From assembly GCA_040384705.1 (NCBI GenBank), contig JAZKIU010000001.1:25907-89906 (forward strand): DNA of 64,000 nt. The letters run 5' to 3'. Positions 20,248 to 62,078 of this stretch are shown here, in pieces. The stretch is from Patescibacteria group bacterium (GTDB lineage Bacteria; Patescibacteriota; Minisyncoccia; Phycocordibacterales; Phycocordibacteraceae). Made by a program: the position numbers and the translations under genes. The stretch's first letter is position 1, and each line of letters starts with the position of its first letter. The notes below the pieces were generated by a model. The model was not told where the DNA came from. It made no database searches and saw only the letters and a list, made by a program, of their open reading frames with translations.

Positions 20248-20283
20248 CTCCGAAAATTATACCGCACGCACTCGCACGCGCGC

Positions 20284-20622
20284 TTAGTGAGTACCTGTTC
20301 CAGGCGGAACCTGCCGGTCAGGCACCATGAATGCGAAGGTCTCGCCTTCCCCTGCGGCGAAGAGCATACCGTTGCTCTCAAGCCCTTTGATGGTACGGGG
20401 CTCGAGGTTCGTCACGAAGGAAAGCTGGCGACCGATGAGCGTCTCGGGCTCGGGAACATACGCATTGATGCCCGACACTATCTGGCGCGGCGCTTCTTCC
20501 CCGAATTCCACCATGAGGCGCAGCAGCTTATCGGTCTCGGGAACGCGCTCTGCCGATATGACGGTGCCGACCTTCACTTCTATCTTCGAGAAGTCATCTA
20601 TGGAAATGCGTGGCTTATCCAT
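20284..20622 (-). CDS. tRNA-binding protein (CsaA/Trbp111-like, MetRS C-terminal-domain fold)
   Basis: N-terminal IDDFSKIEVKVGTVISAE motif typical of the tRNA-binding OB domain. Confidence 0.75.
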   Translation of the reverse strand: MDKPRISIDDFSKIEVKVGTVISAERVPETDKLLRLMVEFGEEAPRQIVSGINAYVPEPETLIGRQLSFVTNLEPRTIKGLESNGMLFAAGEGETFAFMVPDRQVPPGTGTH

Positions 20623-30942: not shown

Positions 30943-31036
30943 GATGAGTCTCCTGATTGCTTGGTTACTGAGGTATAGTATAGCAAAATACACGGTAAAT
31001 GTCAATAGCCTGGCCCTTTCCGCAGGGTGCTACTAT

Positions 31037-41024: not shown

Positions 41025-41116
41025 GTCCCGGGTAGTATACCCAACCTGTGGATAAAGAGCGAAAACAGCGGTTTCCTTGCTCGCTTGGCGTCAAGCTGGT
41101 ACTATCCTGTGGATTA
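41025..41116. promoter_or_regulatory. dnaA-rpmH intergenic region with two DnaA boxes (candidate oriC / autoregulatory boxes)
   Basis: Perfect box TGTGGATAA at about 41047-41055 and variant TGTGGATTA at about 41108-41116, the latter overlapping the rpmH ATG. A TATACT -10 for dnaA on the minus strand lies at about 41034-41039. Confidence 0.55.
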
Positions 41117-41598: not shown

Positions 41599-42333
41599 AT
41601 GACGTCATTCTTCCACACCGTTCTCTACACGCCGATATACAACCTCCTCATATTCCTCACCGATGTCCTTCCGGGCGGCGATATCGGTCTTGCGGTCATC
41701 GCAGCGACCATCATCGTGAAGCTCATTATCATGCCACTCTCCCTTTCGGCGCTCCGTACGCAGAAGGTCATAAAGCTCATCGACCCGAAGGTGAAGGAGC
41801 TCAAAGTGAAATACAAGGACGATAAGGAGAAGCTCGCTATTCAGACCTTCGCGCTCTACAAGGAGTACGGCATAAACCCGTTCGCAGGGCTCCTCACACT
41901 GTTCATTCAGCTCCCCATCCTCCTCACCCTTTTCTGGGTGTTCCAGTCGAAGACCCTCCTTACAGTGGACACGAACATGCTCTACTCGTTCGTTCCCGTA
42001 CCCGAGATGATATCCCCGAATTTCCTCGGTCTATTCGCTATCGGAAGCGCGAGTATCACGCTTGCACTCGTCGCGGCCGTCCTCCAGTTCGTCCACGGCT
42101 ACTACAGCTTCCCTATCCCGGAGAAGAGCACCGCTACCGGCAAGGATGCGCTCCACGCAGACTTCGGCCGCTCCATGGCGCTCCAGATGCGCTTCCTCCT
42201 CCCTATCTTCGTCGGTATCGGCGCGTACGTGACGAGTAATGCCATAGCGCTTTACCTCATCACCGCGAGCGTCGTGGGCCTCGCGCAGGAATTCTATATA
42301 CGCCGTAAGAACGACTCTTCCGCTACGAAATAA
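41599..42333 (+). CDS. yidC: Membrane protein insertase YidC (short form)
   Basis: Five TM helices and the conserved PFAGLLTLFIQLPIL region. Confidence 0.85.
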   Translation: MTSFFHTVLYTPIYNLLIFLTDVLPGGDIGLAVIAATIIVKLIIMPLSLSALRTQKVIKLIDPKVKELKVKYKDDKEKLAIQTFALYKEYGINPFAGLLTLFIQLPILLTLFWVFQSKTLLTVDTNMLYSFVPVPEMISPNFLGLFAIGSASITLALVAAVLQFVHGYYSFPIPEKSTATGKDALHADFGRSMALQMRFLLPIFVGIGAYVTSNAIALYLITASVVGLAQEFYIRRKNDSSATK

Positions 42334-42336
42334 GAG

Positions 42337-43575
42337 CTACAGGTCGTAGGACCACAAGGATCCATCGACCTTATTCATGAAAACGAGCACGTCTTCGCCC
42401 GCATCGATCGAGAGCGATTGAGCATCTATCTGCACGTCCGCGAGCTGGCGCGGATCGAACGTAAGGGTTGCGACGCGCGTAGCTAAATCAATACGCCATA
42501 CACGGTCCGAGAAGGAGCGGGCACCCTGGTACCAATCATCGGGCAGTATGCCTGAGAGCGAGGTAGGGACGCCGCAATAGAGGGCATCGCTGCCTGGTGT
42601 CCACACGCATTTCTCCGGCAGGGTCGAGAGCGGCAGAGGAACGGCAGTGCGGGTGGCGGTGTCGAAGACCTGCGTATATATCTTTCCGCGGTCAGCGTAG
42701 CTATAGAGGATCTTCGTGCCGGACGGTGATGGGAGAGTCGAAAGCCCGCGGAGCGGCCCGAGGACGCGCGTGAACGTTCCTGCCTTGTCGACGAGGAACG
42801 CATATCCGTCGAGATGTGCGGAGGCTTTGGTCTGCGCTACATACCCGCTTCCTGCGAAGGCGACGCGCAGCGATGACATCACTGAGGAGAAGATGGTCGT
42901 GGCGCCGCTGCCGTCGGTGTTCATTATGGTCGCGACCGATCCGCTGCCGCTTGAGAGGAGCGTAAGGACGCTCGAGCTCGCCGCCGTTATCTGCGCGAGG
43001 CCTTGCGTAAGGAAATAGCCCCCTTCCCCGCTCACCGGCAGTAGGTACGTGCTTACGCGCTCTTCGGTACCGTCCTTCTCAAGGAACCGTACGAAGGCGC
43101 GCGAACCATCGCGCGTCCATGAAGCGTCCTCGATACCAGGCAGCGTCTTGTTCGAAAGCCTCGTCATCGTGCGCTCGTGGATTCGGAAGGAGTACACGTT
43201 ACCACTCTGCCGATCGATATAGCGGACTTCCACATCTTCTGGCACTGCGATAACCGTCGTCTGGGTCGTTGTCGCGGTCGAGGAAGCCGTTACCGGCGCG
43301 GAAAGTTGCGGTGGGAAGTATATAGATGCGGTGCCTTTGGCGACCGGTCCGTTCGTGAGCTTCATGAGGCGTGGAGGGAAGACGGTCCCGGCTCCAGGCG
43401 TAGGCACCCCCGTGTCCACGGGTGTCACTGCTCCCGGATCCCTGTCGTCCGCGGAACCGAATGGGTCAGGACCAACCGCAATACCAGAGCCTTTGGAGAA
43501 GAAAAGGAAGTATGCGCTAAGCCCCAACGCAATGAGGAGGACGAGCGTACCGACGATGATGAGGATGCGACGCAT
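42337..43575 (-). CDS. Secreted or membrane-anchored protein, possible beta-propeller, last gene of the T4SS-like operon
   Basis: Start at the internal ATG (MRRILIIVGTLVLLIAL); Trp/Asp-containing repeat-like segments; stop lies 2 nt from the upstream gene. Confidence 0.5.
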   Translation of the reverse strand: MRRILIIVGTLVLLIALGLSAYFLFFSKGSGIAVGPDPFGSADDRDPGAVTPVDTGVPTPGAGTVFPPRLMKLTNGPVAKGTASIYFPPQLSAPVTASSTATTTQTTVIAVPEDVEVRYIDRQSGNVYSFRIHERTMTRLSNKTLPGIEDASWTRDGSRAFVRFLEKDGTEERVSTYLLPVSGEGGYFLTQGLAQITAASSSVLTLLSSGSGSVATIMNTDGSGATTIFSSVMSSLRVAFAGSGYVAQTKASAHLDGYAFLVDKAGTFTRVLGPLRGLSTLPSPSGTKILYSYADRGKIYTQVFDTATRTAVPLPLSTLPEKCVWTPGSDALYCGVPTSLSGILPDDWYQGARSFSDRVWRIDLATRVATLTFDPRQLADVQIDAQSLSIDAGEDVLVFMNKVDGSLWSYDL

Positions 43576-43577
43576 AA

Positions 43578-44540
43578 TTATTTCTTGTCGTACGAACAGG
43601 AGCAGTACTGCTTCTGCCCGTTCGCCGTCTTCGCGGTGCTGCACGAGACCCCATCCCCTTTCTGGTAATTGCAGCACTGGATAGCGGTATTATCGGTCCA
43701 CGCTATCTCCGTGCCGTGCGGGATGGATTTGCATGCGGTATTCGGCTCGCCAGTCGCCGGTATCTTGGACTGAGGCGGGTTCTGCGGGGAAACAGGCGCA
43801 GTCTTCAGTCCGCAGCAGATGCCGCCGTTCAGGTTCGTCGCGCAGCAGCTATCGGTGATCCGCAGTTCCCCCTTCCCTCCGTCGCACGCATTACCTTGCG
43901 GCTTCACCACAGTCTTGTCCTTATATTCTTCGCAGCTCGCGGCCGGAGTAGTGCCCTCTCTCTTCATGCAAATTGTTACGACCGTCCCGGTGCACGTTCC
44001 GCCGTCGGGTATTGGAGCTATGGCGCCACCATCGGCGGGTTTGCAGTTGGCTATAGGCAGGCCGCCCTGCTGCAAGCACTGCGTGCTGGCCGTACCGTAC
44101 GACGAAGTGTCGTTCGCCCATAGGATATCTTCCGCGATACTATCACCGGCCGATAGATCGGAAAGTCCTCGTATCTCGAGCTTCAGTATGTCCGGATTGA
44201 TTATGGAGAAGACGATGGTGGGCGCGAGGACGAGCAGTAGGCCGATGATAGTATCGCGGATGAGATTCTTCGCGTCCCCTATCTTCTCGTGGCTACCGGC
44301 CGCCGTCATCCAGGTCACGCCTGCCCGCATTATCTGCAGGACGCCAATGGCGGCTGCGAGCCCGATACATATCATGTATACGCTGTTGAGGAAGTTCGGG
44401 AGGTCGGCCGCGTTGCCTGCGAACGTTACGTTCTGTATGTTCGTGAGCGGCACAAAGCCCACTTCCGTATCCTGCGCAAAGGCAAGAACAGGAGCCAAGA
44501 CAATCATGGATATTACGAATGTAAGGAAAGTCTTTTTCAT
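43578..44540 (-). CDS. VirB2/TrbC-like pilin module fused to a roughly 200-aa Cys-rich extracellular domain
   Basis: Signal peptide MKKTFLTFVISMIVLAPVLAFA, then two hydrophobic helices separated by a short charged loop (…MICIGLAAAIGVLQIMRAG…AGSHEKIGDAKN…IIGLLLVLAPTIVFSII), then about 22 cysteines (CC, CxC patterns). Confidence 0.5.
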   Translation of the reverse strand: MKKTFLTFVISMIVLAPVLAFAQDTEVGFVPLTNIQNVTFAGNAADLPNFLNSVYMICIGLAAAIGVLQIMRAGVTWMTAAGSHEKIGDAKNLIRDTIIGLLLVLAPTIVFSIINPDILKLEIRGLSDLSAGDSIAEDILWANDTSSYGTASTQCLQQGGLPIANCKPADGGAIAPIPDGGTCTGTVVTICMKREGTTPAASCEEYKDKTVVKPQGNACDGGKGELRITDSCCATNLNGGICCGLKTAPVSPQNPPQSKIPATGEPNTACKSIPHGTEIAWTDNTAIQCCNYQKGDGVSCSTAKTANGQKQYCSCSYDKK

Positions 44541-45514
44541 AGTCCGAATATACCAAGCCCACGCTCCTCCCCGAACTTAACTTGGAGGCGTTGTTCAGCG
44601 GTTGCGAAAGTCGCCGCCTGCTTAACACGGGCGATGAGGTTCGCGACCCCTCCCCCGCTCCCCGTCGCTCGGAGCGTAACGTCCTTATCGCTTCCACTCT
44701 CGGCATTGTTCACGAGCCAGGTGAGCGCGGATCCATTTGGGAAATAGTACGGAACGGCGCGGAATGTCTGCTCATCCCCGCCCATGGTGATGGCTCCTGA
44801 AAGCGCGGTATCGAAAAGGGGTCCGAGGAGCGGATCATTACGATATATACGGACGAGTGGATCTATCGGGGACACTACCGCACTGGTCTGCGCTACGATC
44901 GCGCTATCCGCGCTCGTTACGGTGAGTGTCACGCGGGTATCACGGAAGCGCACAGGCGCTGTTGCTGAAAGGTAGGACTTGCCGATACCGGACTCCGCTT
45001 GGAGCACGCGGTCCCCCAGGCGCCACGTATAGACGAGCGAGCTCGCGGGAAGGCGGGTGCCTGCCGAGGAGCGCAAATCAGGGAGTGCGATGATGCGTAG
45101 GAGTCCCTCCGAAGCGACACCCGCACCGCCCTGGTAGAACGGATGGGTGGTAGTGACCGGCTCTATAACGAGCGACACATCAGCAGGACGGACCGAAAGG
45201 GTCTTGTTGTAGGTGCGTCCTTCGGCGGTCACCGAGACGGTGATGGTGGTGACGCTTCCAGGCCCGCCAACAGTCACGTTCGTGGGTGCGGTGCCGCTCC
45301 CACGCGAGACGACGGTGCCGTTCGCTGAGACGGTGACCGCGCTTGAGGAAAGGTCGACGAGCGTGCTGCTTGGGGTCACCACAATCGTCTGGTATGGCTT
45401 CGGATACTCGGGGGAGATTGTTACGGTAAGCGGCTCGACCCCGCCGAATTGCGCATGGAGCGCACTCGGTACGAGAAGCGCGATGAGCGCGAGCGGGAAA
45501 AACAACCTCGACAT
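44537..45514 (-). CDS. Secreted protein with Ig-like beta-rich repeats
   Basis: Signal peptide MSRLFFPLALIALLVPSALHA; Thr/Val/Ser-rich beta segments. Confidence 0.45.
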   Translation of the reverse strand: MSRLFFPLALIALLVPSALHAQFGGVEPLTVTISPEYPKPYQTIVVTPSSTLVDLSSSAVTVSANGTVVSRGSGTAPTNVTVGGPGSVTTITVSVTAEGRTYNKTLSVRPADVSLVIEPVTTTHPFYQGGAGVASEGLLRIIALPDLRSSAGTRLPASSLVYTWRLGDRVLQAESGIGKSYLSATAPVRFRDTRVTLTVTSADSAIVAQTSAVVSPIDPLVRIYRNDPLLGPLFDTALSGAITMGGDEQTFRAVPYYFPNGSALTWLVNNAESGSDKDVTLRATGSGGGVANLIARVKQAATFATAEQRLQVKFGEERGLGIFGL

Positions 45515-45564
45515 ACCGCTAGTATAGCGCCCTTTCACGTAGCAGGACGGATACGCCTGGGTAT

Positions 45565-46002
45565 TTATGCAGCTTCACGATGTTCGCCCGCAGCTGGTGC
45601 ATTATCATTCGCCGGCGTACCTCTTCTCATTCTTCGCTTCCCTACCTGCTGCGTAAGGAATGGCGCATTCTTCTTCTCTTTCTCCCCCACCTCCTTATTG
45701 TGCTGATAGATGAGCATCGCTACCCCAGTGGTAGTAGCAGGAAGCGCATTAATGAACGGAACGAGCTCGACGACGATAGCTGAGAGCGAGGTGAAGAGCT
45801 TCCCACCACCCTTGTTCGTGATGTATTGGACGCCGAGTAGCTGGAACCAGATGAAGAACACTATCCACACGAGCGGCGTAAGGAACCACGAGAAAACGGC
45901 ACCGAGCACCGTAAGCGTCAGGAGGAATTGGATAAGGTCTACGAGTATCGCTACAGCGAGAAGCGAGAAGATAGCGACCGGGCCTATCTTCTCCTGCTTC
46001 AT
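45565..46002 (-). CDS. Small polytopic membrane protein (three TM helices)
   Basis: Hydrophobic, with a Trp/Phe-rich middle; directly downstream of the VirB4 ATPase ORF with a 4-nt overlap. Confidence 0.45.
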   Translation of the reverse strand: MKQEKIGPVAIFSLLAVAILVDLIQFLLTLTVLGAVFSWFLTPLVWIVFFIWFQLLGVQYITNKGGGKLFTSLSAIVVELVPFINALPATTTGVAMLIYQHNKEVGEKEKKNAPFLTQQVGKRRMRRGTPANDNAPAAGEHREAA

Positions 46003-47834
46003 ACGCGCAAGGGCGGAGCCCCTCCCTCTGCCCCTTGCCGTTCCTTCTCACGCTTTATCGCAAGAAGCTGCGAAGGGTCCGATGTGATTATCTGGTCCTC
46101 GGTGTATGACGCAACAACCTTGATGGCGACGTGCTTGAGGCCCGCAAAGAAGAGGCCCTCCCCAACCCCGCTCTCAAGAAGAAGGTACTTCTCCTCATCG
46201 GTGAGGTTGAACGTCTCCTGGAGCACGTCTATCGTCGTTGGTGACTGCTTAAGGAGGAGTTGGAGGGATGAGTTCGTGAGAATAGGGCGGCCATACGGCG
46301 AGCGGAGGAAGTCCTCCACATCCTGGGTGATGGTAGCGAGCCCGAGATAGTACTTGCGTCCGCGCTTGGCGAGGCTGTAGAGGAAGGAGGCGGTGTCCTC
46401 CGACTTCATCATCCACCACGCTTCATCGATGACGAGTAGGCGCTTCTTGAGCTCGTGACGCACCGCGTTCCAGATGAAGTGCGTGATGATGTACATCGCG
46501 ACCGGCTTGAGCTCGTCCTCCATGTCCCGAACCGAGAAGACGATGAACTGCTTATTGATATCGACGTTCGTCGGTCGGTTTATGAATCCGGCCCAGGTGC
46601 CGTGCGTGTATTTGGAAAGCCGGGTAACGAGCGACTCGGATCCCTCCATGCCGGAAAGCACGTTCTCGAAGTCGGAAAGGAGCGGCGGCTCCTGGCCCGT
46701 GAAGTCGTTATCGCCCGTGATGTCCTTCAGCGCGTATGTCTCCGTGATGGCTCGATCGATGATAGCGTCCTCTTCCGGGGTAAGGCCGCCCAGCATGATG
46801 CGGAACAGGCCGACGAGATTGATGATGTTGGACCGGAGGATATCGGAAGGCTCCTCGTCCTCTTTGACCGGCGGCAGGTCGAACGGGTTGATGTGATGCT
46901 CGGAGGAGAGCGAGATGTTGAAGGTACGTCCGCCGGTCGCTTCCGCAAGGTATTCGTACTCGCGTTCCGGGTCAATGACAATGACTTCCGTCTCGAACAT
47001 GAGGGAGCGGAGTATCTCAAGCTTCACCGCGTACGACTTGCCCGAACCTGACTTCGCGAACACGACGGAGTTGTAGTTCTCGAGCGAGAAGCGATCGAAG
47101 AGTATCAAGGATGCATTGTGGCGGTTGATGCCGTACAGGATGCCGCGATCGCTCGTGAGGTCGAAGGAAACGAATGGGAATATCGAGGAAAGCGGCGAAG
47201 AATTGAGCTTGCTGTTCACCTGGAGCTCGTCGAGCGCGAGCGGAAGCGTCGAGCGGTATCCCTGCTCCTGCTGAAAGAGAGCGGGCTTCGTGTATACGAG
47301 CTTGGAGTCGAGGATGCCGCGCACCTCCCCTTCTATCTTGTCGAGCTCCTCCTTGCTGTCGCCGTAGAGCGTGAGATACAGGCCGACATCGAAGAGGCGC
47401 TCCTGCGCCTGCTGCAGCTGGTCGCGCAGGTTCTCGAGGTCCTGGTACGCCGTGTCGAGCATCGGGTCACGCACGAGCCCCTTCGATTCCCTCTCGTTTA
47501 TCTGGCTCTCCACTTCAGCGACCTTCCTCTGGAAGCCACGAAGAGCACCTGCGGTCTCGAGCGGGTGTATGAATATGGCAGCATCGAGCACACGGTCGAG
47601 GTTCACGATTGGCATGAACCAGCCGTCCGAGAGGAAGCGGGGGTATGAAATGGTGTAGAACGAGCGCGAGAACTTCTCCCCGAGTTCGATTTCCCGTGCG
47701 CTCACCTTGAGTGCAGCTGGGGCGATAGCATCAGCAAGATCGAGCTTACCTTCCCGATAGATATCGGCAGGAAGAACGGGCGTCACGCTAGGCGTTTCTT
47801 CTTTCTTGCGGTTGAGGAAATCGAGTAGCGCCAT
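45999..47834 (-). CDS. virB4: VirB4/TrbE/ConE-family type IV secretion ATPase (central and ATPase domains)
   Basis: Walker A FAKSGSGKS, Walker B LLVIDEAWW, and the YPRFLSDGW central-domain motif. Confidence 0.85.
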   Translation of the reverse strand: MALLDFLNRKKEETPSVTPVLPADIYREGKLDLADAIAPAALKVSAREIELGEKFSRSFYTISYPRFLSDGWFMPIVNLDRVLDAAIFIHPLETAGALRGFQRKVAEVESQINERESKGLVRDPMLDTAYQDLENLRDQLQQAQERLFDVGLYLTLYGDSKEELDKIEGEVRGILDSKLVYTKPALFQQEQGYRSTLPLALDELQVNSKLNSSPLSSIFPFVSFDLTSDRGILYGINRHNASLILFDRFSLENYNSVVFAKSGSGKSYAVKLEILRSLMFETEVIVIDPEREYEYLAEATGGRTFNISLSSEHHINPFDLPPVKEDEEPSDILRSNIINLVGLFRIMLGGLTPEEDAIIDRAITETYALKDITGDNDFTGQEPPLLSDFENVLSGMEGSESLVTRLSKYTHGTWAGFINRPTNVDINKQFIVFSVRDMEDELKPVAMYIITHFIWNAVRHELKKRLLVIDEAWWMMKSEDTASFLYSLAKRGRKYYLGLATITQDVEDFLRSPYGRPILTNSSLQLLLKQSPTTIDVLQETFNLTDEEKYLLLESGVGEGLFFAGLKHVAIKVVASYTEDQIITSDPSQLLAIKREKERQGAEGGAPPLRV

Positions 47835-47836
47835 GA

Positions 47837-48469
47837 TTATTGTTCTAGTCGGATAGGGTTCTCCGTGACGCCAGGATTGAACGAGCGGTACAGGAGTTCG
47901 ATGAGCTCCTCGGTACCGAGCGGTACCGCGCGTATGCCGGCGTTCTGGAGGCCGGACGCGACGAGTCCCATCCGCTGCTCGAGCTGGACGCGGTGCTCAT
48001 CGAAATTATTCGGGCCCGCCTGCTCGGTCGGAGCTGTCGGCTTCTTAAGGAACGGAATGCTGCTCGTTACGGCGCTCGCGATTGCGGGGGTGTATGGCAC
48101 GACGACATAGAAGAGCTTCGTCATGATGTCGCTCGAATCCATGAAGTTCCGTATGAACGCGAGATACTCGCGGAGCTGCAGGCGCATCAGCTCGCTCGTC
48201 TGCGTATCCATCTTGCTCTCGAGCAATGCGAGGTAGGGTCGGATATCCATCTTGCGGGAATGCACGAGTATCTCGACCGAGAAATCGAGCGTGTTCAGGA
48301 AGTTCTGGAACCCTCCGATTATGCCGCGCTGCTCGTCCTCGGATTTGAGGAAGAAGTTCATGGAGGAGCACATGAGGACGCCTCGGTACCCGTCCTCCTT
48401 GAGGATGATGATGCCGTTGCGTACTTCTTCGACCGGCACGAAGGATTGGGTTGCTTTTGGTGTCGCCAT
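47837..48469 (-). CDS. VirB4 N-terminal domain encoded as a separate ORF (split VirB4)
   Basis: VPVEEVRNGIIILKEDGYRGVLMCSSMNFFLKSEDEQRGII matches the N-terminal region of Gram-positive VirB4 homologues. TAA stop lies 2 nt before the ATG of the ATPase ORF, in a different frame. Confidence 0.6.
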   Translation of the reverse strand: MATPKATQSFVPVEEVRNGIIILKEDGYRGVLMCSSMNFFLKSEDEQRGIIGGFQNFLNTLDFSVEILVHSRKMDIRPYLALLESKMDTQTSELMRLQLREYLAFIRNFMDSSDIMTKLFYVVVPYTPAIASAVTSSIPFLKKPTAPTEQAGPNNFDEHRVQLEQRMGLVASGLQNAGIRAVPLGTEELIELLYRSFNPGVTENPIRLEQ

Positions 48470-48471
48470 GA

Positions 48472-48885
48472 TTAGGGGTTCGTGGGCGGCTGATTGTCCT
48501 TGATATCCAGCGACCAGGCGAGTTCCTGGAGCCGTCCGCGCGAAAGGCCGAGCTTCTGGGGAGCCTGCACCTCGACCGGGGCGACGTATGCCGAGCTGGA
48601 AGTTTTCGCCTCCTTCTTCCAGAGGTAGAGGCGCCCGCCTACGTAGTACTTGAAGCCGGCCTCGAGCATCTCCACGAAGGTCTTGTTGTTCACTTTGTAG
48701 AACGCGAGCGCAGCTGCGAGCGCGACGACGGGTATGGAGAGGATGATACCGAACAGGAGCGGTAGATACAGGAGGAATATTGCGGCAAGTCCCCCGCCGC
48801 CGGCGAGATAGATGAATTGCTTCAGCGTCAGCGGGCCGATTATCTTGTCCTCTACTTCGATGAACTGCGGCACTTGGTATTCCAT
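48472..48885 (-). CDS. PrgI-family / VirB3-like small membrane protein
   Basis: MEYQVPQFIEVEDKIIGPLTLKQFIYL followed by two TM helices, positioned immediately upstream of VirB4. Confidence 0.55.
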   Translation of the reverse strand: MEYQVPQFIEVEDKIIGPLTLKQFIYLAGGGGLAAIFLLYLPLLFGIILSIPVVALAAALAFYKVNNKTFVEMLEAGFKYYVGGRLYLWKKEAKTSSSAYVAPVEVQAPQKLGLSRGRLQELAWSLDIKDNQPPTNP

Positions 48886-48946
48886 CGCTATCAGTATAAC
48901 TGATACGGCGCGAGGAAGCAGCGGGTTAAGAAAATAGTTCGCGCTA

Positions 48947-49861
48947 TTACTGCATCGGCTCGCGATATGGGTCTACGCCGTACTGCTTCAGATGGGTGCG
49001 CATAGCAGCTTCAGGGCTTTCGCGCTCAGGAGCTGGTTGGGTAGTTGGAGGAACGGATGCAGCGACTTGCGGGCGCGGTGCTTCGGCTGCTACCCATGCG
49101 GGAGGTGCGGGATGCGCAACGCGTATAGGATCGACACCGTCCTTGAGTGCTTTCATATCGCGCGCCATTGTGTGGATGACCCGGGCATTCGTGTCGAGCG
49201 GCTGGGCTTCTGGCATGGGAATCGAGACAGCAGGAGTTGGCGCCGGGTTTGGAGGAGGAGGAACGGGACGCTCGGGCATCTGGCCCGGCAATATCTGCGG
49301 AGGTGGGACTTGCTTGGGTGCCACTGGTTTCTCTATCGCTTTCTCGATGTACGAAGGCGGAGCGGAGACCGCAGGCAATGGGCTATATACAGGAATCATA
49401 GGAGAAGGGTGGGGTGCGGCAGGTGCAGGTGCCACATATATAGGTATCTCTTTAGCAACCGGAGCAGCAATAGTCGCAGGCACCAGGTCTTTAGATCCGG
49501 TGTCGCTTCCCCGCCGCTCTTCTTCGCGTAAACGCATGAAAACATCCTTATTCACATCTTCCACGAGCCCATTCACTTTCTCGGGAGAGATGCCTGCTTC
49601 ACGCAGCGAAACCACAAATTCCGGTGGCGAAGAAATACCTAGAAGCATGAATATAAATGCCCGCTCAAATTCCCCCGCTTGATCGGCATGAAGACCATAC
49701 TTCTTTGATAGTTCCAACACGACGCGAGCGCGCTCGCTACCAGTTATGAATTCTTGCACAGGCTTAGGTAGCTCGGCCACCAGTGTGGCAATAGCGTCTT
49801 CGACGGACATTTTCTCGGAATTAGGCGTTACGTTGGTCGGTTCCATATCTGAAATCATCAA
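48947..49861 (-). CDS. Proline-rich protein of the T4SS-like operon
   Basis: An alpha-helical N-terminal domain, then about 150 aa that are Pro/Ala/Val-rich (PPPNPAPTPAVSIPMP...). Confidence 0.45.
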   Translation of the reverse strand: MMISDMEPTNVTPNSEKMSVEDAIATLVAELPKPVQEFITGSERARVVLELSKKYGLHADQAGEFERAFIFMLLGISSPPEFVVSLREAGISPEKVNGLVEDVNKDVFMRLREEERRGSDTGSKDLVPATIAAPVAKEIPIYVAPAPAAPHPSPMIPVYSPLPAVSAPPSYIEKAIEKPVAPKQVPPPQILPGQMPERPVPPPPNPAPTPAVSIPMPEAQPLDTNARVIHTMARDMKALKDGVDPIRVAHPAPPAWVAAEAPRPQVAASVPPTTQPAPERESPEAAMRTHLKQYGVDPYREPMQ

Positions 49862-52149
49862 TGCGCTCCACCTCCACCTCCACCTCCACCTCCACTAGCC
49901 GGTGCCCCACCCCCACCTATTTTGCTGCCGAGTCCGGCTATAGCATCTATCACCCTCTGATTTTCTGATTTATCAATACTCTTCAGTATCTCTGCAGCAG
50001 CCTCATGGTTTGCGTGGGCGTCGGCCGTCGGCCAAGGCAGGCCTCTATGCTCGATATTCTTAGCAAACTCGCGCTTCGGCACATTTGAATCCACGTCTTT
50101 CATCGCTCGATCGATATCTTCGATTTCACGATCGATTCGGCGCGCAGTTGCCTTCTGGTCCTTCTCAAACAACGCCTTACGAGCCTTCAAGCTCTTTGCC
50201 AACGCTTCATTTGTGGGCCCACCAGCACTTTCAGCTGCTGCAATTTCAACCTGGAGCGTGTCAGTTTGTTCCTCCGTCTGGCGCTGCAGGATTTTCTTCT
50301 CGGCTTCCTTGCTGTTCTTCTGATTCTTCAGCTTATTCTCTGCGGATTTTTCCTCATCTGTTTGCTTAAGCTTGCCGGCATAGTCAGTGCGCTCCTTTTT
50401 CGCTTTCTCCTCTATCCCATGCCAGCCATGAGATGCGTCTTTACCAACCTTCCCAAAATCAAGATGTGCACCCTTCCCAGCAGCGGTAGCAACGCCTCGC
50501 ATGCTGTAGCTCGCTGCCGCACCTTTGCTAAAGGTGTTGTAGACGCCTCGTCCAAATTGACTGTTCCTCGCCCACTTGGTCTTTCCGATACGCTCAGCAA
50601 CTACGCCCGACGCCGCACCAACCGTGCGTCGTCCCAGGAAGCCATACGTCCCAAGCACCGCTCCGCCCGCCTTCTGCGTCGCGAAGTCAGCGCCCACTGC
50701 TCCCATACGCTTGGCGACCACTAGTGAGGCAACCATGAACGCGATGACTATCGCGAACATGACGAAGACCTGGGGAGCATTCATTCCGCCATTGATGAGC
50801 GCGAGCGCGAACGAATCCCCGTTATCTGTACCGACGAGCCCCTCGACTATCTTCAGGCTGATGAGGACGAGAAGGAGGTAGACGGGAGCGAAGAACGCAT
50901 TCGATAGAAGCTGCTTCCACCAGCTGCGTGCGAATTCTTGAAGCGGCGGGATGGCCATTCCCGCGAATCCAATAGGCGAAAGGACCATGAGAAGGCAGAG
51001 CATCACCGCACGCATGATGAGCATTATCGCTGCGGCAAGCAGGACGACGGCAGTGATGGTGACGAAGATCGTGAGACCTACGTATACCGGAGCGTGCTTC
51101 TCCGGACGATTGCTGAAGTCCCCGATACCCTGCGGGCTCCATATGCTGGATATGCCGGCCATATGGATGACTTGCCCCGCGATGCCGTTATTCGCGCACG
51201 CCTCTTTTCCTTGCTCGTCATTGCCCGAGCAGCCGGAGAGGCCAGCCTGTGTCGTGAACACGGAAGCGAAACTGTTGGATACGTCGATGATGATCTGCGT
51301 GGCGAAGAGGCTGAAGTTGAGAAGCACTGCGAAGATAATGAGTCGTGCGATGGTCTTACCCCCTGCGAATTCATTATGGCTATCGATTATCTTCATCAGC
51401 CCCATGAATATGAATCCGAAGAGCAGAAGAATGTTCGCAATATCACGGAGTATTCCCCAGGCGATGAGCATCCCCGGAGAGGTTCCAAAGTAACTACCGA
51501 ACTCGAAGACTGTCTTTATCACTACCCAATTAAAGAGACCGCCCACCACCCAGAGCATGAAGCTGGCGATGATGAGGAGCACACTCGCGATGGAGCCGAT
51601 AATCGTTCCCATAAGGCCCGCGAGGCCCTCTGCGACGCATGAGCCGATATCCCCAAAACTTTTGAGGCTACAATTGCTTGTGGAATCAGGGTTCGCGTCC
51701 ACATTCGCGTTATTTTGCTCCCCAGTCTGCTTAGCATCGACCGCACTTGCATCTCTAGAGTCATCGGTCCCAATGAGCTTCCCATCCGCGTCGTAGTTCT
51801 TCACTTCCTGCCCCGCCAGTGCTCCGGGGGTTATCGTCGTGTACGAGCCGTCCTTAAACGTAACCTTGCACGTGCCAGCTGAGCCAAGCGCCCCCCCACA
51901 AGCTGTGGTGCTTCCGTCAGCATTCGCACGCGTGCAGCCGGTATTCCCCGTGGTGGCGCCGCACGGGCTTTCATCAACCGATGCGTGGCTAATGGATGTA
52001 ACGGATGTCTGAGCGAGAGCTGCTGCTGGAATAAAAAGACACGCTGAAGCTGCCGCCAGAAGCGCTCCACAAATGATTAGGGCCTTAAGATGGTCAGTTC
52101 GTGCACCTTGATCCTTCGGAAGTGTGCGCATGATTAGTTCGACGGACAA
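49858..52149 (-). CDS. VirB6/TrbL-like polytopic membrane protein with a long coiled-coil, Gly-rich C-terminus
   Basis: Signal peptide, a Cys-containing roughly 150-aa ectodomain, at least 6 TM helices, a KEAEKK coiled coil, and a terminal GGGGAPASGGGGGGGGGAH tail. Confidence 0.65.
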   Translation of the reverse strand: MSVELIMRTLPKDQGARTDHLKALIICGALLAAASACLFIPAAALAQTSVTSISHASVDESPCGATTGNTGCTRANADGSTTACGGALGSAGTCKVTFKDGSYTTITPGALAGQEVKNYDADGKLIGTDDSRDASAVDAKQTGEQNNANVDANPDSTSNCSLKSFGDIGSCVAEGLAGLMGTIIGSIASVLLIIASFMLWVVGGLFNWVVIKTVFEFGSYFGTSPGMLIAWGILRDIANILLLFGFIFMGLMKIIDSHNEFAGGKTIARLIIFAVLLNFSLFATQIIIDVSNSFASVFTTQAGLSGCSGNDEQGKEACANNGIAGQVIHMAGISSIWSPQGIGDFSNRPEKHAPVYVGLTIFVTITAVVLLAAAIMLIMRAVMLCLLMVLSPIGFAGMAIPPLQEFARSWWKQLLSNAFFAPVYLLLVLISLKIVEGLVGTDNGDSFALALINGGMNAPQVFVMFAIVIAFMVASLVVAKRMGAVGADFATQKAGGAVLGTYGFLGRRTVGAASGVVAERIGKTKWARNSQFGRGVYNTFSKGAAASYSMRGVATAAGKGAHLDFGKVGKDASHGWHGIEEKAKKERTDYAGKLKQTDEEKSAENKLKNQKNSKEAEKKILQRQTEEQTDTLQVEIAAAESAGGPTNEALAKSLKARKALFEKDQKATARRIDREIEDIDRAMKDVDSNVPKREFAKNIEHRGLPWPTADAHANHEAAAEILKSIDKSENQRVIDAIAGLGSKIGGGGAPASGGGGGGGGGAH

Positions 52150-53474
52150 GCGCGTGCTTGGCGTATCTGTACGAGCTGACTATAGAGTGAGCCAGATACA
52201 GTGCTTGCGGCCGCTTGCGCAGCTGCTGTTTCCGTGGCTGTAGGGACAACACTCGCTATCACGTCGGTGGTGACGCCTGGCTGACGTAGTACTGACGTGG
52301 CGGTGCTTACGCGTGACTGCGCGATCACTGAATCCTGAACGGCCTTAAGGGCGACGCTTGACTCGGGACATTTCTGGACAGCTGCCTGTGCCGCTGTACC
52401 AATCGTTTGCCAGCTCGTCTCATACGTCGCGAGGCGTGACTGCGCTGCAGCGTCTACCGTACCTCCCGTTTGTTGATTGGGAGCGGTCGCTTGATTCAGG
52501 ATAGAACTACCACCACCGCTCGATGGTGCGGAAACGCCGAGGAGTCCCGTCTTCCCGATGACCTGCGTCACCAGCTGCTGCATGAGCGCGCCGATTATCT
52601 CATCTATCTCGTCGGCGGCGACGAGCCCTTCCATACTCTTCGGAAGTGCTGCATTGAGCTGCGACGATATAACGCTTCCCGGGGTCTTTATCTCCCGATA
52701 CAGACAGTTATCGACTTCCGCGAGCGATGTCGCGCTCCCACCCTCGGCAAGATCGGTCGCGTCTACCCCATCAGCCTTTTGGGCCGCGGTCAGGCTATCG
52801 GAATCGATGAGGCAATCCCCGCGGTACGACATGAACCCATCACCCCAATCAAGTTCGGTTATCCGTTCTCCCTGGGCGCTCGAGAGCCGTCGGTCGAGTT
52901 CGCCGAGCGCGAGCTGGTACGCGCCATACGGATTGTTCTGCTGGTTCATCGTGGTCGAGAACCATGCGGAGAGCCCGCCCTGCGAGAAGTCGCCACGAAG
53001 GAATGCGTCCGGATCCGAGCTGTACTGGTCGAGGGTGAACGGATTCCGGACGTAGAAGGAGCCTCCAGTAGAAAGGTAGTAGCCGGTGCGGACCGCTGTC
53101 ACTATCTCGTCCTGATAGGGCGAATCCACTATCCCGTCCGCGAGCTCGTCGAAAAACCTCCCCGCGACCGCGTCACCTACCCGCAGCAGGTTCTGCCGTA
53201 GATTAGTCGCGAATGCCGGAGAGCCCTGGAAGCCGGAATTTATCCACGTTACCAGGCTTCTCGTCATGGCGGATACCGCAGACTTCGCTATCATCCAGGC
53301 GATACCATCTGCGATAGTGTCCTTTCCGAAATGGGCCGCCTGGAAGGCAGTATTCAAAACATCGCCGACTGGGAGGAAGGCGTGCGCCGGGCGCGGTGCG
53401 ACCGCGACCCCCATCGGCAGGACGATACTGAAAGCTACGAGTAGCGAAATGAGGGTGCGGGTGAATCGTGCCAT
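52134..53474 (-). CDS. Secreted hypothetical protein of the T4SS-like operon
   Basis: Signal peptide MARFTRTLISLLVAFSIVLPMGVAVA and a 420-aa Gln/Ser/Ala-rich domain. Confidence 0.45.
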   Translation of the reverse strand: MARFTRTLISLLVAFSIVLPMGVAVAPRPAHAFLPVGDVLNTAFQAAHFGKDTIADGIAWMIAKSAVSAMTRSLVTWINSGFQGSPAFATNLRQNLLRVGDAVAGRFFDELADGIVDSPYQDEIVTAVRTGYYLSTGGSFYVRNPFTLDQYSSDPDAFLRGDFSQGGLSAWFSTTMNQQNNPYGAYQLALGELDRRLSSAQGERITELDWGDGFMSYRGDCLIDSDSLTAAQKADGVDATDLAEGGSATSLAEVDNCLYREIKTPGSVISSQLNAALPKSMEGLVAADEIDEIIGALMQQLVTQVIGKTGLLGVSAPSSGGGSSILNQATAPNQQTGGTVDAAAQSRLATYETSWQTIGTAAQAAVQKCPESSVALKAVQDSVIAQSRVSTATSVLRQPGVTTDVIASVVPTATETAAAQAAASTVSGSLYSQLVQIRQARACPSN

Positions 53475-53480
53475 ATACGT

Positions 53481-54467
53481 TTACGGTTGTTGGGAAGCGC
53501 GGAGCGCGGTCGCGTCAGCTGCACCTTTCACGTACTCCTCCCCTGCTGCGCCGGGTGTGAGCGAGAGGCCAGCTGCTCGGAACACTGCATCCTGCGCAGA
53601 TAGTGCGTCAACGAGTGCGTTCGAATAGGTCCGGTGCACGCCGAAGCCGAGCAGCGCGAGTATCGGATCGGTGCTTATCGTAGAGAGGTCTTCGGTAGCG
53701 CGACCCAGTCCCATGAATGCATTCGCAAGCGCGAGATGAGACTGGGCGGCTTCGGCAGGCACGCTTATCTGGATAAGCGCCTCCCCTATCGCTGCATACC
53801 CGACGGCTATTTCCTTCATGCGACGCGGGGCGGCCGCATCGTTGTCTTCTATATAGCGCTCAACATGGTCGAGCTCTGACGCGCCTGTGTTCGCTGCATT
53901 CTGCTCAATCGCATTCTCGACAGCGGCGACGTAAGTCGCGAGGCTGGTCCCGGCCACTATTTTGATATCTTTGGTATCAAAAGCGTTCTTCGCCGTCGCT
54001 TCCGCGGTCAATTCTTTTATCGCGCTCTCGACGAACGCAAGCATCTCTTCCTCCCTAGGAGGGGTCGCTCCACGCGTCGAGAGATACTGCGCGAGGAATT
54101 TCTGCGCGAATCGCTCGGTGAGCGATGAGGGTGCAGCCGAGGTGCCCGGGAATTCCCCGTCATCCTTGGGCGCTTCAAGGGATTTCGGTGTCAGGAGACC
54201 TTGATTGACTGCTTCACCGTCCTGAATGTCAGCTCTGAAGGAAGTCGGATTCAACGGATCGGTGCCGTAGAGGGACTCCTGCCAATCCTGTAGCCCGTCA
54301 GCGTCCGTATCCTTCGCCGCATACGCACGAAGCAATTCCTCGCTCGATTCAGCCGTCACGGTGTTGATGAACGGGATAGGGCCCGAGAGTACGTACGCAC
54401 CAGCCATCAGCGTTACCGCTATGACCGAAGCGATGATGATTGGGACGGTACGGGTAGAATGAGCCAC
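53481..54467 (-). CDS. Membrane-anchored protein, first gene of the T4SS-like operon (GTG start)
   Basis: N-terminal TM helix and a roughly 290-aa extracytoplasmic domain (its size suggests a VirB8-like role, though no motif was identified). Extended -10 TGATAGTAT lies 13 nt upstream. Confidence 0.45.
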   Translation of the reverse strand: MAHSTRTVPIIIASVIAVTLMAGAYVLSGPIPFINTVTAESSEELLRAYAAKDTDADGLQDWQESLYGTDPLNPTSFRADIQDGEAVNQGLLTPKSLEAPKDDGEFPGTSAAPSSLTERFAQKFLAQYLSTRGATPPREEEMLAFVESAIKELTAEATAKNAFDTKDIKIVAGTSLATYVAAVENAIEQNAANTGASELDHVERYIEDNDAAAPRRMKEIAVGYAAIGEALIQISVPAEAAQSHLALANAFMGLGRATEDLSTISTDPILALLGFGVHRTYSNALVDALSAQDAVFRAAGLSLTPGAAGEEYVKGAADATALRASQQP

Positions 54468-54479
54468 GGTAATAGGCTC

Positions 54480-54488
54480 ATACTATCA
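54480..54488 (-). promoter_or_regulatory. Extended -10 (TGaTAGTAT) for the T4SS-like operon
   Basis: Minus-strand reading GCGTGATAGTATgagcctattaccGTG. Confidence 0.35.
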
Positions 54489-54530
54489 CGCAGGTATGCG
54501 GTCGTTCAGGCCGCTTTCACGAAATGTGCA

Positions 54531-55312: not shown

Positions 55313-57247
55313 TTAATCTATTATCACCTCCCCTTCCCCGTCCGGAGGAACGGAATACATAAGGCCCTCATCGATGTCGTAGAGGAAGTGGGATGGTTCC
55401 GCGAAATAGTCGGTGCCATAGAGGCGACGGATGCGCGCAAGCGTAAGGTTGAGGCGTTTCTTCGCGCGCGTGACTGCGACATAGAAGAGCCGGCGTTCTT
55501 CTTCCTGATCGCGCTCGTTCTCGTCGCCCATACCTTCGTGCGGGAATAATCCCTGCTCCATGCCGGTAACGAATACCGTATCGAACTCAAGCCCCTTCGC
55601 TGCATGCACTGTCATGAGCGTGACTCCCGTCGTTCCCGGTTTCCTGTCGAGTTCGTCCTGGTCGCCCGCGAGCGCGGTGTCGGCCAGGAACGCATTGATG
55701 CCCTCCTCTCCGGGTGTCGCGTCATAGCGACTCGCAAGCGTTGCGAGCTCTTTCACGTTCTCAAGTCGTTCCTTGTCATCATCCGCTCCCTTTGCGAGCG
55801 CCTCTGCCATTCCGCTCTTCTCGATGATGGAGCGCACGAATACAGAAGGAAGCGCGGTCTTCGCTTCCGCGTTGAGCTCCTCGACAAGCGCCTCGAATGC
55901 CGCGACCTTGGTGCGCTCACTCGGCTTAAGCGAATCCCTGTTCCCTTCCGTAAGCTTCCCGAGGGTCACCTTCCCGATACCGCGAGGAGGAAATTGTACG
56001 GCGCGTATACGGTCCGTTTCGCGCGTTGGCTCGAGCGCGAGCCTGACCCACGCGAGCACGTCCTTTATTTCCTTCCTATCGAGGAACCGCGTACCTAAGA
56101 GCTTGTATGGCACGCCCGCGTGCAAGAATGCTTCCTCTATCGCACGCGACTGGAAGTTGGTTCGATAGAGCACCGCTATCTCTTCGGGCGGCGTGCCGCG
56201 CAGCATCTCGGAGTGCGCCTGCCGCGCGACGTATCGGGCCTCTTCTTCTGCGGTTCCGGCTACGAATAGGCGGATGGGCTCGCCATCAGGATTATCGGTG
56301 ACAGATGTCTTCTCTTTCCGGTTGCTGTTCTTCTCGATTATCTGGTTCGCAGCTTCGACGATAGTCTTCGTCGAGCGGTAGTTGTGCGCGAGCACGATGG
56401 TCTTCGCGGACGGATACGACTGCTCGAACGAGAGAAGGTTCTCGATGGTTGCACCGCGCCAGGTGTAGATGGTCTGATCGATGTCGCCCACGACGAACAG
56501 ATTCCCGTGCCGGTGCGACAGCATGCTCGCAAGTCTACCCTGGAGCGCGTTGGTGTCCTGGTATTCGTCCACGTGAATGTGCGAGAAGAGTTCCTCGGCT
56601 GCAGTGCGGATGTCATCATGCCCCGCGAGCAGATGCACCGGAAGGCAGATGAGGTCATCGAAATCGAGCGCCTTCTCTTTCTTGAGTGTGTTCTCATAGC
56701 GCTCCCATACCTCAGACGCGATACGGGCACGGAAGCTCTCTCGCCCGTGCTTCTCGCGGAACTCGGCCGGCGTCATGCCATCTCCTTTCGCTTTGCTGAT
56801 GCGGGAGAGAATAGCCCGTGGAGGTACCTCCTTAGGGTCCACGTCGAGCGCCTTGAGCGCTTCCTTAATCGCGCGCTCCGAATCATCACGGTCGAAGATG
56901 CTGAAATACCGCGGAATACCGAGACGGCTGCCGTAGCGCTCGAGGATAATACGACCAAGCCCGTGGAAGGTGACCACTACCGGAAGCGGAGAGTCTCCGA
57001 GCTGGACTGCGAGGCGCTCCCGCATCTCGCGGGCGGCCTTATTCGTGAACGTCACGGCCAATATCTTCTCGGCCGGTACCCCCTCCCGGATAAGGTGGTA
57101 GATACGGGTGGTGAGCACCCGGGTTTTGCCTGAGCCCGCGCCGGCAAGAACGGAAATCGGGCCTTCGGTAGCGAGCACCGCCTCCCGTTGCGCATCATTG
57201 AGTCCATTAAGGTACTGCATCGTTAATGAAATATACCGCGGGCGCAT
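55313..57247 (-). CDS. pcrA: UvrD/PcrA/Rep-family ATP-dependent DNA helicase
   Basis: Walker A LAGAGSGKTRVL and SF1 helicase motifs; 644 aa. Confidence 0.9.
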   Translation of the reverse strand: MRPRYISLTMQYLNGLNDAQREAVLATEGPISVLAGAGSGKTRVLTTRIYHLIREGVPAEKILAVTFTNKAAREMRERLAVQLGDSPLPVVVTFHGLGRIILERYGSRLGIPRYFSIFDRDDSERAIKEALKALDVDPKEVPPRAILSRISKAKGDGMTPAEFREKHGRESFRARIASEVWERYENTLKKEKALDFDDLICLPVHLLAGHDDIRTAAEELFSHIHVDEYQDTNALQGRLASMLSHRHGNLFVVGDIDQTIYTWRGATIENLLSFEQSYPSAKTIVLAHNYRSTKTIVEAANQIIEKNSNRKEKTSVTDNPDGEPIRLFVAGTAEEEARYVARQAHSEMLRGTPPEEIAVLYRTNFQSRAIEEAFLHAGVPYKLLGTRFLDRKEIKDVLAWVRLALEPTRETDRIRAVQFPPRGIGKVTLGKLTEGNRDSLKPSERTKVAAFEALVEELNAEAKTALPSVFVRSIIEKSGMAEALAKGADDDKERLENVKELATLASRYDATPGEEGINAFLADTALAGDQDELDRKPGTTGVTLMTVHAAKGLEFDTVFVTGMEQGLFPHEGMGDENERDQEEERRLFYVAVTRAKKRLNLTLARIRRLYGTDYFAEPSHFLYDIDEGLMYSVPPDGEGEVIID

Positions 57248-61975: not shown

Positions 61976-62078
61976 TAGCCCTACCTTACCACATCTTGAT
62001 TAAAAGCGCAAGTGTTGTGGGGTGCGGACAGCCTCCCCTGCCAATATTTTACGACGTCCCGGGTGCTACACTTTCTAT

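Follow-up and report, generated by a model that had tools for sequence, protein, structure and literature searches.

A probable Patescibacteria-clade type IV secretion operon with fast-evolving segments in a Paceibacteria chromosome

Results

An eleven-gene operon with a type IV secretion core

A large part of the diversity of bacteria belongs to the Patescibacteria, which live attached to other microbes. Here we describe an operon from a Patescibacteria group bacterium (assembly GCA_040384705.1, contig JAZKIU010000001.1), of which we analyzed 64,000 nucleotides (nt), positions 25,907 to 89,906 of the forward strand; this whole stretch is called the window below, and all coordinates are window positions unless stated otherwise. 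The operon is a tightly packed minus-strand array running from 54467 down to 42337, with all of its genes codirectional, and it consists of a split engine (a TrsD-like protein and the ATPase VirB4) together with PrgI, an extended VirB6, one pilin, and six lineage-specific proteins, five of which are envelope proteins. We consider it likely that the locus represents, in Paceibacteria, the chromosomal type IV secretion system (T4SS) of the Patescibacteria clade, which has its origin in the machinery that monoderm bacteria use for conjugation (MPF_FATA). A preliminary description had already seen in it a chromosomal, host-adapted T4SS-like machine rather than a conjugative element, and the Patescibacteria homologues of its genes, its conserved synteny, and the failure to find conjugation parts, all described below, bear this out.

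The array contains 11 open reading frames (ORFs), which we refer to by their order in the operon (O1 to O11) or by family. Twelve had been counted before; we checked the gaps of the array for a twelfth ORF and found none, and for the downstream half the count of 11 is upheld by genes called independently on a metagenome contig encoding an identical O9 protein, since these give products of 145, 325, 320, and 412 amino acids (aa) followed by yidC and rnpA. Most junctions are overlaps of 1 to 4 nt or gaps of 2 to 6 nt. Two gaps are wider, one of 61 nt between the proline-rich O4 gene and PrgI and one of 26 to 50 nt upstream of O9, so that the range of 2 to 16 nt given earlier for overlaps and gaps does not hold. 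The operon does reach to yidC, as had been said, its 3′ end lying 3 nt from the stop of the convergent yidC gene (41599-42333, PF02096). At its other end it starts 63 nt past ksgA, a gene of the same strand that in turn follows uvrD.

The VirB4 ATPase (611 aa; 45999-47834) contains a Walker A motif (AKSGSGKS) and a Walker B motif (LLVIDE) and matches the NCBIfam CD1110-type model at an E value of 1.7e-112 (377 bits, against a cut-off of 325) over model positions 183-733 of 752, that is, without the extreme N-terminal domain. Its nearest solved structure is 4ag5, the C-terminal domain of a Thermoanaerobacter VirB4 (E value of 1e-44), followed by TrwK of R388, which aligns solely over TrwK residues 300-741. 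The best 120 VirB4 homologues listed are 86 to 100% identical to it and 603 to 613 aa long, and their named sources are Patescibacteria, mostly Paceibacterota/Parcubacteria, save for three labeled “bacterium,” “Bacillota bacterium,” and with metagenome coordinates alone. The VirB4 assignment of the preliminary description is thus upheld.

Next to VirB4 lies a 210-aa ORF (47837-48469) that had been left unclassified and that we now assign as a TrsD-like protein, a homologue of the VirB4 N-terminal domain encoded by a gene of its own. Its matches are to positions 2-104 of 752 of the CD1110 model and positions 102-233 of 894 of VirB4_plasma, the NCBIfam model of mycoplasma VirB4 (E value of 7.6e-9), and by these alignments it supplies the N terminus absent from VirB4 and corresponds to TrsD of pGO1-type plasmids. 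Upstream of it is a small membrane protein of the PrgI/VirB3 type (137 aa; 48472-48885; PF12666, E value of 2e-10, 41.5 bits, cut-off of 27). This PrgI had been placed directly upstream of VirB4; its identity is confirmed, but the TrsD-like ORF intervenes.

The TrsD-like and VirB4 ORFs lie 2 nt apart in different frames and cover model positions 2-104 and 183-733, respectively, which could be read as a frameshifted VirB4 in pieces of 210 and 611 aa and, hence, as a decaying locus whose machine is dead. To compare related loci, we used a set of 80, chosen by VirB4 similarity and including Kaiser-, Nomura-, Taylor-, Zambryski-, and Campbellbacteria. The TrsD-like gene is separate in 78 of 79 of these, with ORFs of similar length (205 to 229 aa in 77 and 263 aa in one), and because of this we conclude that the split is not a frameshift. 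Moreover, the narrow range of lengths of the 120 VirB4 homologues speaks against such decay, the arrangement parallels that of TrsC-TrsD-TrsE in pGO1-type systems (PMC12102498), and both pieces are highly conserved: in the closest relative (L001), whose DNA is ~88% identical over the operon and its flanks, the TrsD-like protein and VirB4 are 97% and 99% identical, respectively. A frameshifted VirB4 was accordingly rejected on the strength of a split conserved across relatives, and we regard a dead locus as scarcely conceivable.

A further recognizable component is an extended polytopic protein of the VirB6/TrbL type (49858-52131), which is 757 aa long from its ATG; its ORF extends to 52149 with a TTG start, giving the 763 aa reported earlier. 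PF04610 matches residues 246-474 with 27.0 bits (cut-off of 25.9), in agreement with the earlier assignment. A scan for transmembrane (TM) helices divides the protein into a signal or anchor, a cysteine-containing ectodomain (approximately residues 36-170), a TM core of ~6 helices (residues 177-473), and a cytoplasmic tail that is long, rich in K and E, and terminates in a glycine run. Together with VirB4 and PrgI, VirB6 therefore scores above its curated cut-off in the hidden Markov model (HMM) searches that had been proposed as a check on the locus.

O10 (320 aa; 43578-44540) is the VirB2-like pilin, with a signal peptide, hydrophobic helices at residues 53-71 and 96-114, and a cysteine-rich C-terminal extension of ~205 aa; the whole protein contains 17 cysteines. 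It had been described as a two-helix pilin of the VirB2/TrbC type, and the description stands on the evidence of its orthologues: the copy in the window matches PF18895 over residues 49-110 with 21.3 bits, under the cut-off of 26.6, while among its positional orthologues PF18895 is matched by 40 of 46 and TrbC/VirB2 by 16 of 46. When an HMM of the pilin module was run on the window, O10 was the sole match, and O8 was not detectable as a second pilin.

Conserved surroundings and the conjugation parts looked for

In most of the related loci that are long enough, tblastn recovered the order uvrD-ksgA-O1-O2-VirB6-O4-PrgI-TrsD-VirB4-(O8)-O9-pilin-O11-yidC-dnaA-dnaN, so that the synteny check suggested earlier gave a conserved gene order in most of the 80 loci. 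PrgI was found in 76 of them and O11 in 65. Dozens of Paceibacteria genomes from several candidate orders have the operon flanked by these housekeeping genes, with rnpA between yidC and dnaA. Just upstream of dnaA in the window are two DnaA boxes, at 41047-41055 and 41108-41116, one of them perfect and the other with one mismatch, which fits a distance of no more than ~1.5 kb between the operon and the region of the replication origin. In the same genomes, VirB4 has a median identity to the window of 77%, compared with 55% for DnaA, 50% for KsgA, 49% for UvrD, 42% for YidC, and 39% for DnaN; this contrast is somewhat inflated by the choice of loci by VirB4 similarity. That VirB4 is very strongly constrained is nonetheless clear, and the locus appears, from its shared surroundings, to be inherited vertically beside the replication origin.

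One subclade departs from this arrangement. In L013 (L013:5292-9362, Kaiserbacteria JACRFL010000002.1) and, similarly, in L014 to L031, the O1-O2-VirB6-O4 module is missing at the site, and the 8 to 9 kb upstream of PrgI carry genes for TIM, PGK, RecJ, RNase H, ComEC (split into a DUF4131 ORF and a Competence ORF), and an M50 peptidase. Because these loci have other genes upstream of PrgI, the O1-O2-VirB6-O4 module is separable from the module running from PrgI to O11.

We scanned the 11 operon ORFs, 10 flanking ORFs, and, from the remainder of the window, the 10 largest ORFs, and in this set we found no relaxase, no coupling protein (T4CP) of the VirD4 type, and no VirB11, as the preliminary description had stated. 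No family of the outer membrane core (VirB7, VirB9, or VirB10) was matched among the operon ORFs. Near the operon we saw a single recombinase, a tyrosine recombinase (62022-62984) that lies 7.5 kb away and next to an exonuclease III gene (63002-63796); it aligns over its full length with XerD/XerC (E value of 1e-39) and is taken to be a housekeeping enzyme of dimer resolution. The earlier statement that no integrase flanks the operon therefore holds for phage-type integrases and att repeats and has to be amended for this XerC/D-like enzyme.

These data bear on the possibility that the operon is an integrated conjugative element (ICE), or the remnant of one, that has no relaxase, coupling protein, or integrase. 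Outside the Patescibacteria, VirB4, TrsD, and PrgI are most closely related to proteins that Gram-positive plasmids and ICEs use for conjugation (reported also in PMC12102498), and a tyrosine recombinase lies 7.5 kb off. Against this, the housekeeping neighbors are the same in dozens of genomes of several candidate orders, and the recombinase is XerC/D-like along its whole length. The GC content of the operon (0.55 to 0.59) equals that of its flanks (0.53 to 0.62 elsewhere in the window), as had been noted; a search for repeats at the operon borders returned only short chance matches, with no direct repeats, and there is no tRNA gene within 16 kb. VirB4 is more conserved than DnaA, unlike what a decaying element would show, and any acquisition would have been ancient, at the root of the phylum, according to PMC12102498. 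We judge an ICE origin of this kind highly improbable, and both an ICE remnant and a decaying locus are effectively excluded.

Segments that evolve fast

Most proteins are 91 to 100% identical between the window and L001, and the exceptions are confined to particular segments. In VirB6, the TM core is 96 to 100% identical, in contrast to 20 to 40% for the N-terminal ectodomain and 6 to 63% for the cytoplasmic tail, and the first 150 residues of O4 are 13 to 53% identical. At the DNA level there is no alignment to L001 (L001:5742-8902) across 52164-51674 or 50613-49448, and the mosaic regions of the window (51680-52131 and 49410-50600) have sharp edges. The same mosaic pattern recurs in other close pairs (L055/L072 and L005/L006). 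Edges this sharp suggest that the surface-exposed parts have undergone allele replacement or are under strong diversifying selection.

O4 (303 aa; 48947-49858), the gene following VirB6, encodes a presumably cytoplasmic protein that has no signal peptide and that matched no family in Pfam and NCBIfam scans. Judged by its sequence features and an alignment of its orthologues, it has a helical N-terminal domain of ~115 aa, a variable proline-rich linker, and a C-terminal DPYRE; with 16.8% proline overall, it accounts for the “Pro-rich” protein of the preliminary description. The VirB6 tail and the O4 N-terminal domain turn over jointly, which suggests that the two may interact. At the extreme C terminus of O4 (48947-48964), the motif DPYRE(P) is invariant in 33 of 33 aligned orthologues (invariant residues D296, P297, Y298, and E300), and the remainder of the protein is poorly conserved. 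DPYRE(P) may be a docking or recognition peptide.

The pilin shows a comparable division. Depending on the locus, its C-terminal extension is anywhere from 15 to 465 aa long, and between close pairs it is 0 to 22% identical, as opposed to 87 to 97% for the pilin module. The fast-evolving surface parts, namely, the VirB6 ectodomain and the pilin head, are probably matched to particular hosts.

Accessory proteins

O2 (446 aa; 52134-53474), whose gene ends 2 nt ahead of the VirB6 ATG, is a mostly helical protein with a predicted signal peptide and thus secreted; a Pfam scan found no family in it, and a profile search for solved relatives found none. A profile of its first 335 residues matched at least 6,065 clusters at 50% identity with E values of ≤1e-3, and 3,367 of them with E values of ≤1e-30, so that the family ranks among the large unannotated families of the Patescibacteria, with neither a Pfam nor an NCBIfam model. 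Pfam searches of the orthologue set gave no common family, only occasional C-terminal domains of the adhesin type. Some members of the wider family carry C-terminal Ig-like, PKD, or discoidin domains.

As a sign of likeness to TrbJ/VirB5, we took a signal peptide followed by the mature N-terminal motif xVVxDPxNxxQN, a combination that is evident in many members of the O2 family. DUF4141 matched 4 of 25 O2-family members and the NCBIfam TrbJ models 7 of 25, and when eight members were tested singly, all eight matched TrbJ models at approximately residues 12-60. A tblastn search of plasmids with the mature N terminus (signal peptide removed) gave 17 weak matches, 8 of them trbJ genes, and hhalign aligned the O2 family with the TrbJ of a Hydrogenophaga plasmid at 92% probability over 26 columns. 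The family consensus AHAQxxVxDxxN compares with AHAQWVVVDPTNLVQNT in TrbJ, and one family member (AQAQLVVVDPTNLVQNTLNAI) closely resembles a TrbJ sequence (AHAQWVVVDPTNLVQNTLTAI). Gene order is similar as well: the Hydrogenophaga plasmid has the order trbJ-(trbK)-trbL, with trbJ just ahead of trbL as O2 is ahead of VirB6, and in Bacteroides conjugative transposons the DUF4141 gene adjoins traJ (TraJ/VirB6). The remaining ~400 aa of O2 belong to an unrelated, unannotated family. We regard a VirB5-like function for O2, as a candidate stalk or tip protein, as a tentative lead that is more apt to fail than to hold, and not as family membership.

O9 (325 aa; 44537-45514) is an exported protein that consists of three tandem all-beta domains of the Ig/FN3-like sandwich type, in keeping with the Ig-like protein noted before; its C terminus carries a conserved GIFGL, and a profile search of solved structures returned one weak Ig match (Hoc). 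O11 (412 aa; 42337-43575), the last gene of the operon, encodes a bitopic protein with an N-terminal TM helix (residues 4-22), a linker, and then a candidate propeller. Its profile matched 12 TolB structures at E values of 0.012 to 0.32, and PD40, the one Pfam family seen in the orthologue set, was matched weakly by 2 of 45 orthologues. O11 probably carries a TolB-like beta-propeller; a possible beta-propeller protein had been surmised in the preliminary description.

O1 (328 aa; 53481-54467), the first gene, encodes a bitopic membrane protein with a TM helix at residues 10-28, a match below cut-off at residues 53-74 to TSP3_bac (PF18884), a calcium-binding thrombospondin-type-3 repeat (E value of 9.6e-5), and an ectodomain of ~230 aa. 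Its GTG start fits the homologue consensus MxxxxRxxxI. O1 was found by tblastn at the same position in 28 of the 80 related loci, and a profile search for solved relatives of it returned none. As candidates for an NTF2-like protein (VirB8, PrgL, or TcpC), O9 is all-beta and Ig-like, O11 is propeller-like, and O1 is bitopic with no profile match. O8 (145 aa; 45565-46002) is a polytopic membrane protein with ~3 TM helices and a basic tail, and its sole family match is a weak one, to pLS20_p028 (E value of 0.008). In most related loci its slot is filled by an ORF of 110 to 250 aa with 2 to 4 TM helices, and in ~20 it is empty.

Transcription and neighboring genes

The 63-nt gap between ksgA and O1 (54468-54530) contains, at 54478-54486 on the minus strand, the sequence TGATAGTAT, a possible extended −10 element. 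This motif had been put forward as the promoter of the operon; it is present, but a consensus promoter scan reported no full sigma-70 site in the gap, and a scan of promoters and terminators gave no more sites than in shuffled sequence. Transcription of the operon by read-through from uvrD-ksgA is equally possible. At the other end, the stops of yidC and O11 (42333-42337) are so close that they leave no space for a terminator between them.

The gene preceding ksgA encodes a UvrD/PcrA-type helicase (55313-57247), found directly upstream in the order uvrD-ksgA-operon in many relatives, and is probably a housekeeping gene. UvrD/PcrA-type helicases are also used in rolling-circle DNA processing.

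Divergent from uvrD, and nine genes upstream of virB4, is a gene on the plus strand for a LysM-LysM-M23 peptidase (57403-58551; PF01551, E value of 8.6e-30, with two LysM domains). This peptidase could provide the cell wall-opening (VirB1-like) function, its membership in the system being uncertain. The window also contains genes for a 627-aa PilB-type ATPase of the T2SSE family with an MshEN domain (30836-32719, plus strand), 9.6 kb beyond the operon, and, from the ORF scan, PilM (19155-20381, minus strand). By their families, these two belong to a type IV pilus and not to the T4SS, and the ATPase, the one member of the T2SSE family among the scanned ORFs, is not VirB11.

Discussion

A probable secretion machine of the Patescibacteria clade

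Much of what we find in the window has counterparts in published work. A survey of 3,035 Patescibacteria genomes (Quinonero-Coronel et al. 2025, Microb Genom, PMC12102498) recovered a monophyletic Patescibacteria VirB4 clade nested in MPF_FATA, with TrsD as the most abundant T4SS component and commonest companion and with VirB3/PrgI, VirB6, and VirB2-like pilins near virB4. The same survey places the Paceibacteria system near dnaA, dnaN, ksgA, rnpA, and rpmH and describes VirB1-like proteins with M23/LysM domains and VirB1 homologues associated with virB4 in Paceibacteria. In “Candidatus Southlakia epibionticum,” transposon sequencing showed that SEML1_0006 to SEML1_0019 are essential for epibiotic growth (Wang et al. 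2023, Cell, PMC10633639); this cluster has pilins and is described there as having neither a coupling protein nor a relaxase. The Patescibacteria T4SS is the first shown to be essential to its own carrier. A 2025 review (PMC12857230) treats it as a new branch within the T4SS superfamily, and in cultured Paceibacterales the pilins of the T4SS rank among the unknown genes with the highest expression (PMC10936435). The preliminary description had called minimal VirB4/VirB6 systems poorly characterized; the locus is such a system, but its parts, its missing relaxase, and its position at the origin were published in 2025 (PMC12102498) and its essentiality in 2023 (PMC10633639).

As we picture the likely Patescibacteria-clade T4SS, VirB4, TrsD, and VirB3 would sit at the membrane beneath a VirB6 platform, and VirB4 would draw pilin out of the membrane so that it could be polymerized on VirB6 into a short pilus or conduit. 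Once secreted, O2 might cap or seat the structure on VirB6, as VirB5 does, and O9 together with the membrane-anchored O11 might replace the missing VirB7/8/9/10 scaffold across the wall. Such a machine would make contact with the host cell and move proteins or host-derived molecules independently of a T4CP. Because there is no coupling protein or relaxase nearby, it is probably not conjugating DNA.

Several observations weigh against parts of this account. The window covers 64 kb of a 640-kb genome, so that a distant T4CP or relaxase is possible, and in PMC12102498 relaxases are almost absent but VirD4/T4CPs occur in many genomes, mostly far from virB4. Essentiality has been established in one Saccharibacterium only, in which the accessory genes are different, and the published sources, as far as their text goes, report no pilus on these organisms. 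The O11 propeller rests on weak profile matches. As for O2, the copy in the window has diverged (FLPVGDVLNTAFQ) and has no TrbJ match, the likeness to VirB5 extends over only ~26 to 50 N-terminal residues, fold searches were nonspecific, and the AF2 (AlphaFold2) model is of low confidence (pLDDT of 71 and pTM of 0.38).

A different function is conceivable for the same parts. In the main rival reading, the operon might encode a DNA uptake machine like Helicobacter ComB or archaeal Ced, which would bring in DNA from the host or the environment and so supply nucleotides and genes. ComB, too, has no T4CP or relaxase nearby, VirB4 gives weak partial matches to CedB (E value of 3.5e-9) and CedD (E value of 0.005), and in L013-type loci ComEC lies ~2 kb upstream of PrgI-TrsD-VirB4 with a few small ORFs between. 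Furthermore, comF, recG, and radA adjoin the T4SS in class ABY1 (PMC12102498), and Patescibacteria are described as unable to make nucleotides (PMC10633639, PMC12857230). However, the CedB matches are confined to the shared P-loop region and fall far under cut-off, no ComEC or ComEA adjoins the operon in the window, and the window holds type IV pilus genes of its own (PilB-like and PilM). In Southlakia, both type IV pili and ComEC are required for competence; comEC can be deleted without loss of viability, whereas the T4SS is essential (PMC12857230). We therefore think DNA uptake improbable, if distinctly less so than an ICE.

One could also go further than a Patescibacteria-clade T4SS and propose a structurally new kind of T4SS in place of a pared-down Gram-positive one, with O2 on VirB6, a swappable pilin head, an Ig/propeller scaffold, and cassette replacement setting the host range; the cassettes would then be the VirB6 ectodomain, the VirB6 tail with the O4 N-terminal domain, and the pilin head. 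We find this doubtful. We prefer to regard the locus as a clean, complete Paceibacteria example of the Patescibacteria-clade system and not as a new kind of system. The text of the published T4SS papers names no VirB5/TrbJ-like component and no role for the Paceibacteria accessory genes, and the new details added here are the TrbJ/VirB5-type N-terminal motif of the O2 family, the triple-Ig O9, the probable propeller of O11, and the hypervariable VirB6 and pilin segments. The leads that follow are a candidate VirB5-like partner of VirB6, an accessory set that possibly replaces the scaffold, and a map of fast-evolving segments in which host specificity would be expected to reside.

Comparison with known systems

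The Patescibacteria-clade T4SS and the locus in the window have in common a Gram-positive-type VirB4, a separate TrsD, PrgI/VirB3, VirB6, and a VirB2-like pilin, and they are also alike in their chromosomal site by dnaA, dnaN, ksgA, and rnpA and in a cluster with neither relaxase nor T4CP. Southlakia differs in having six small pilins in an array and an NTF2-like (VirB8-like) protein, whereas the window has one pilin with a large, variable, cysteine-rich extension and no recognizable VirB8. The window also has O1, O2, O4, O9, and O11, to which the text of PMC12102498 and PMC10633639 gives no role.

With the MPF_FATA systems (trs of pGO1/pSK41, tra of pIP501, prg of pCF10, and the CD1110-type system of CTn2), the locus shares the order of VirB3-like, TrsD-like, and VirB4 genes, which is that of TrsC-TrsD-TrsE; the CD1110 family provides the best curated model for the ATPase, and the outer membrane core of VirB7, VirB9, and VirB10 is absent from both. 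Unlike those systems, the locus has no relaxase, coupling protein, topoisomerase, recognizable VirB1 or VirB8, or PrgB-type adhesin, and its VirB2-like pilin and TrbJ-like N-terminal motif are features of Gram-negative systems. Thus, it can also be set beside the P-type trb and virB systems of Proteobacteria (TrbC-TrbD-TrbE-TrbJ-TrbL and VirB2-VirB6), with which it shares the VirB2/TrbC pilin module and a secreted protein encoded upstream of VirB6, from a family with the mature N terminus of TrbJ. The likeness of O2 to TrbJ ends after ~26 to 50 residues, however, and the locus lacks VirB7 to VirB11.

Finally, the Trw system of Bartonella resembles the locus in having no coupling protein and a variable surface pilin, and it is thought to be a host-specific adhesion pilus and not a translocator (review, PMC12857230). 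Trw belongs to the diderm MPF_T systems, and its variation comes from tandem gene copies, whereas the variable domains in the window are on single-copy genes, so that the parallel between the two is an analogy of mechanism only.

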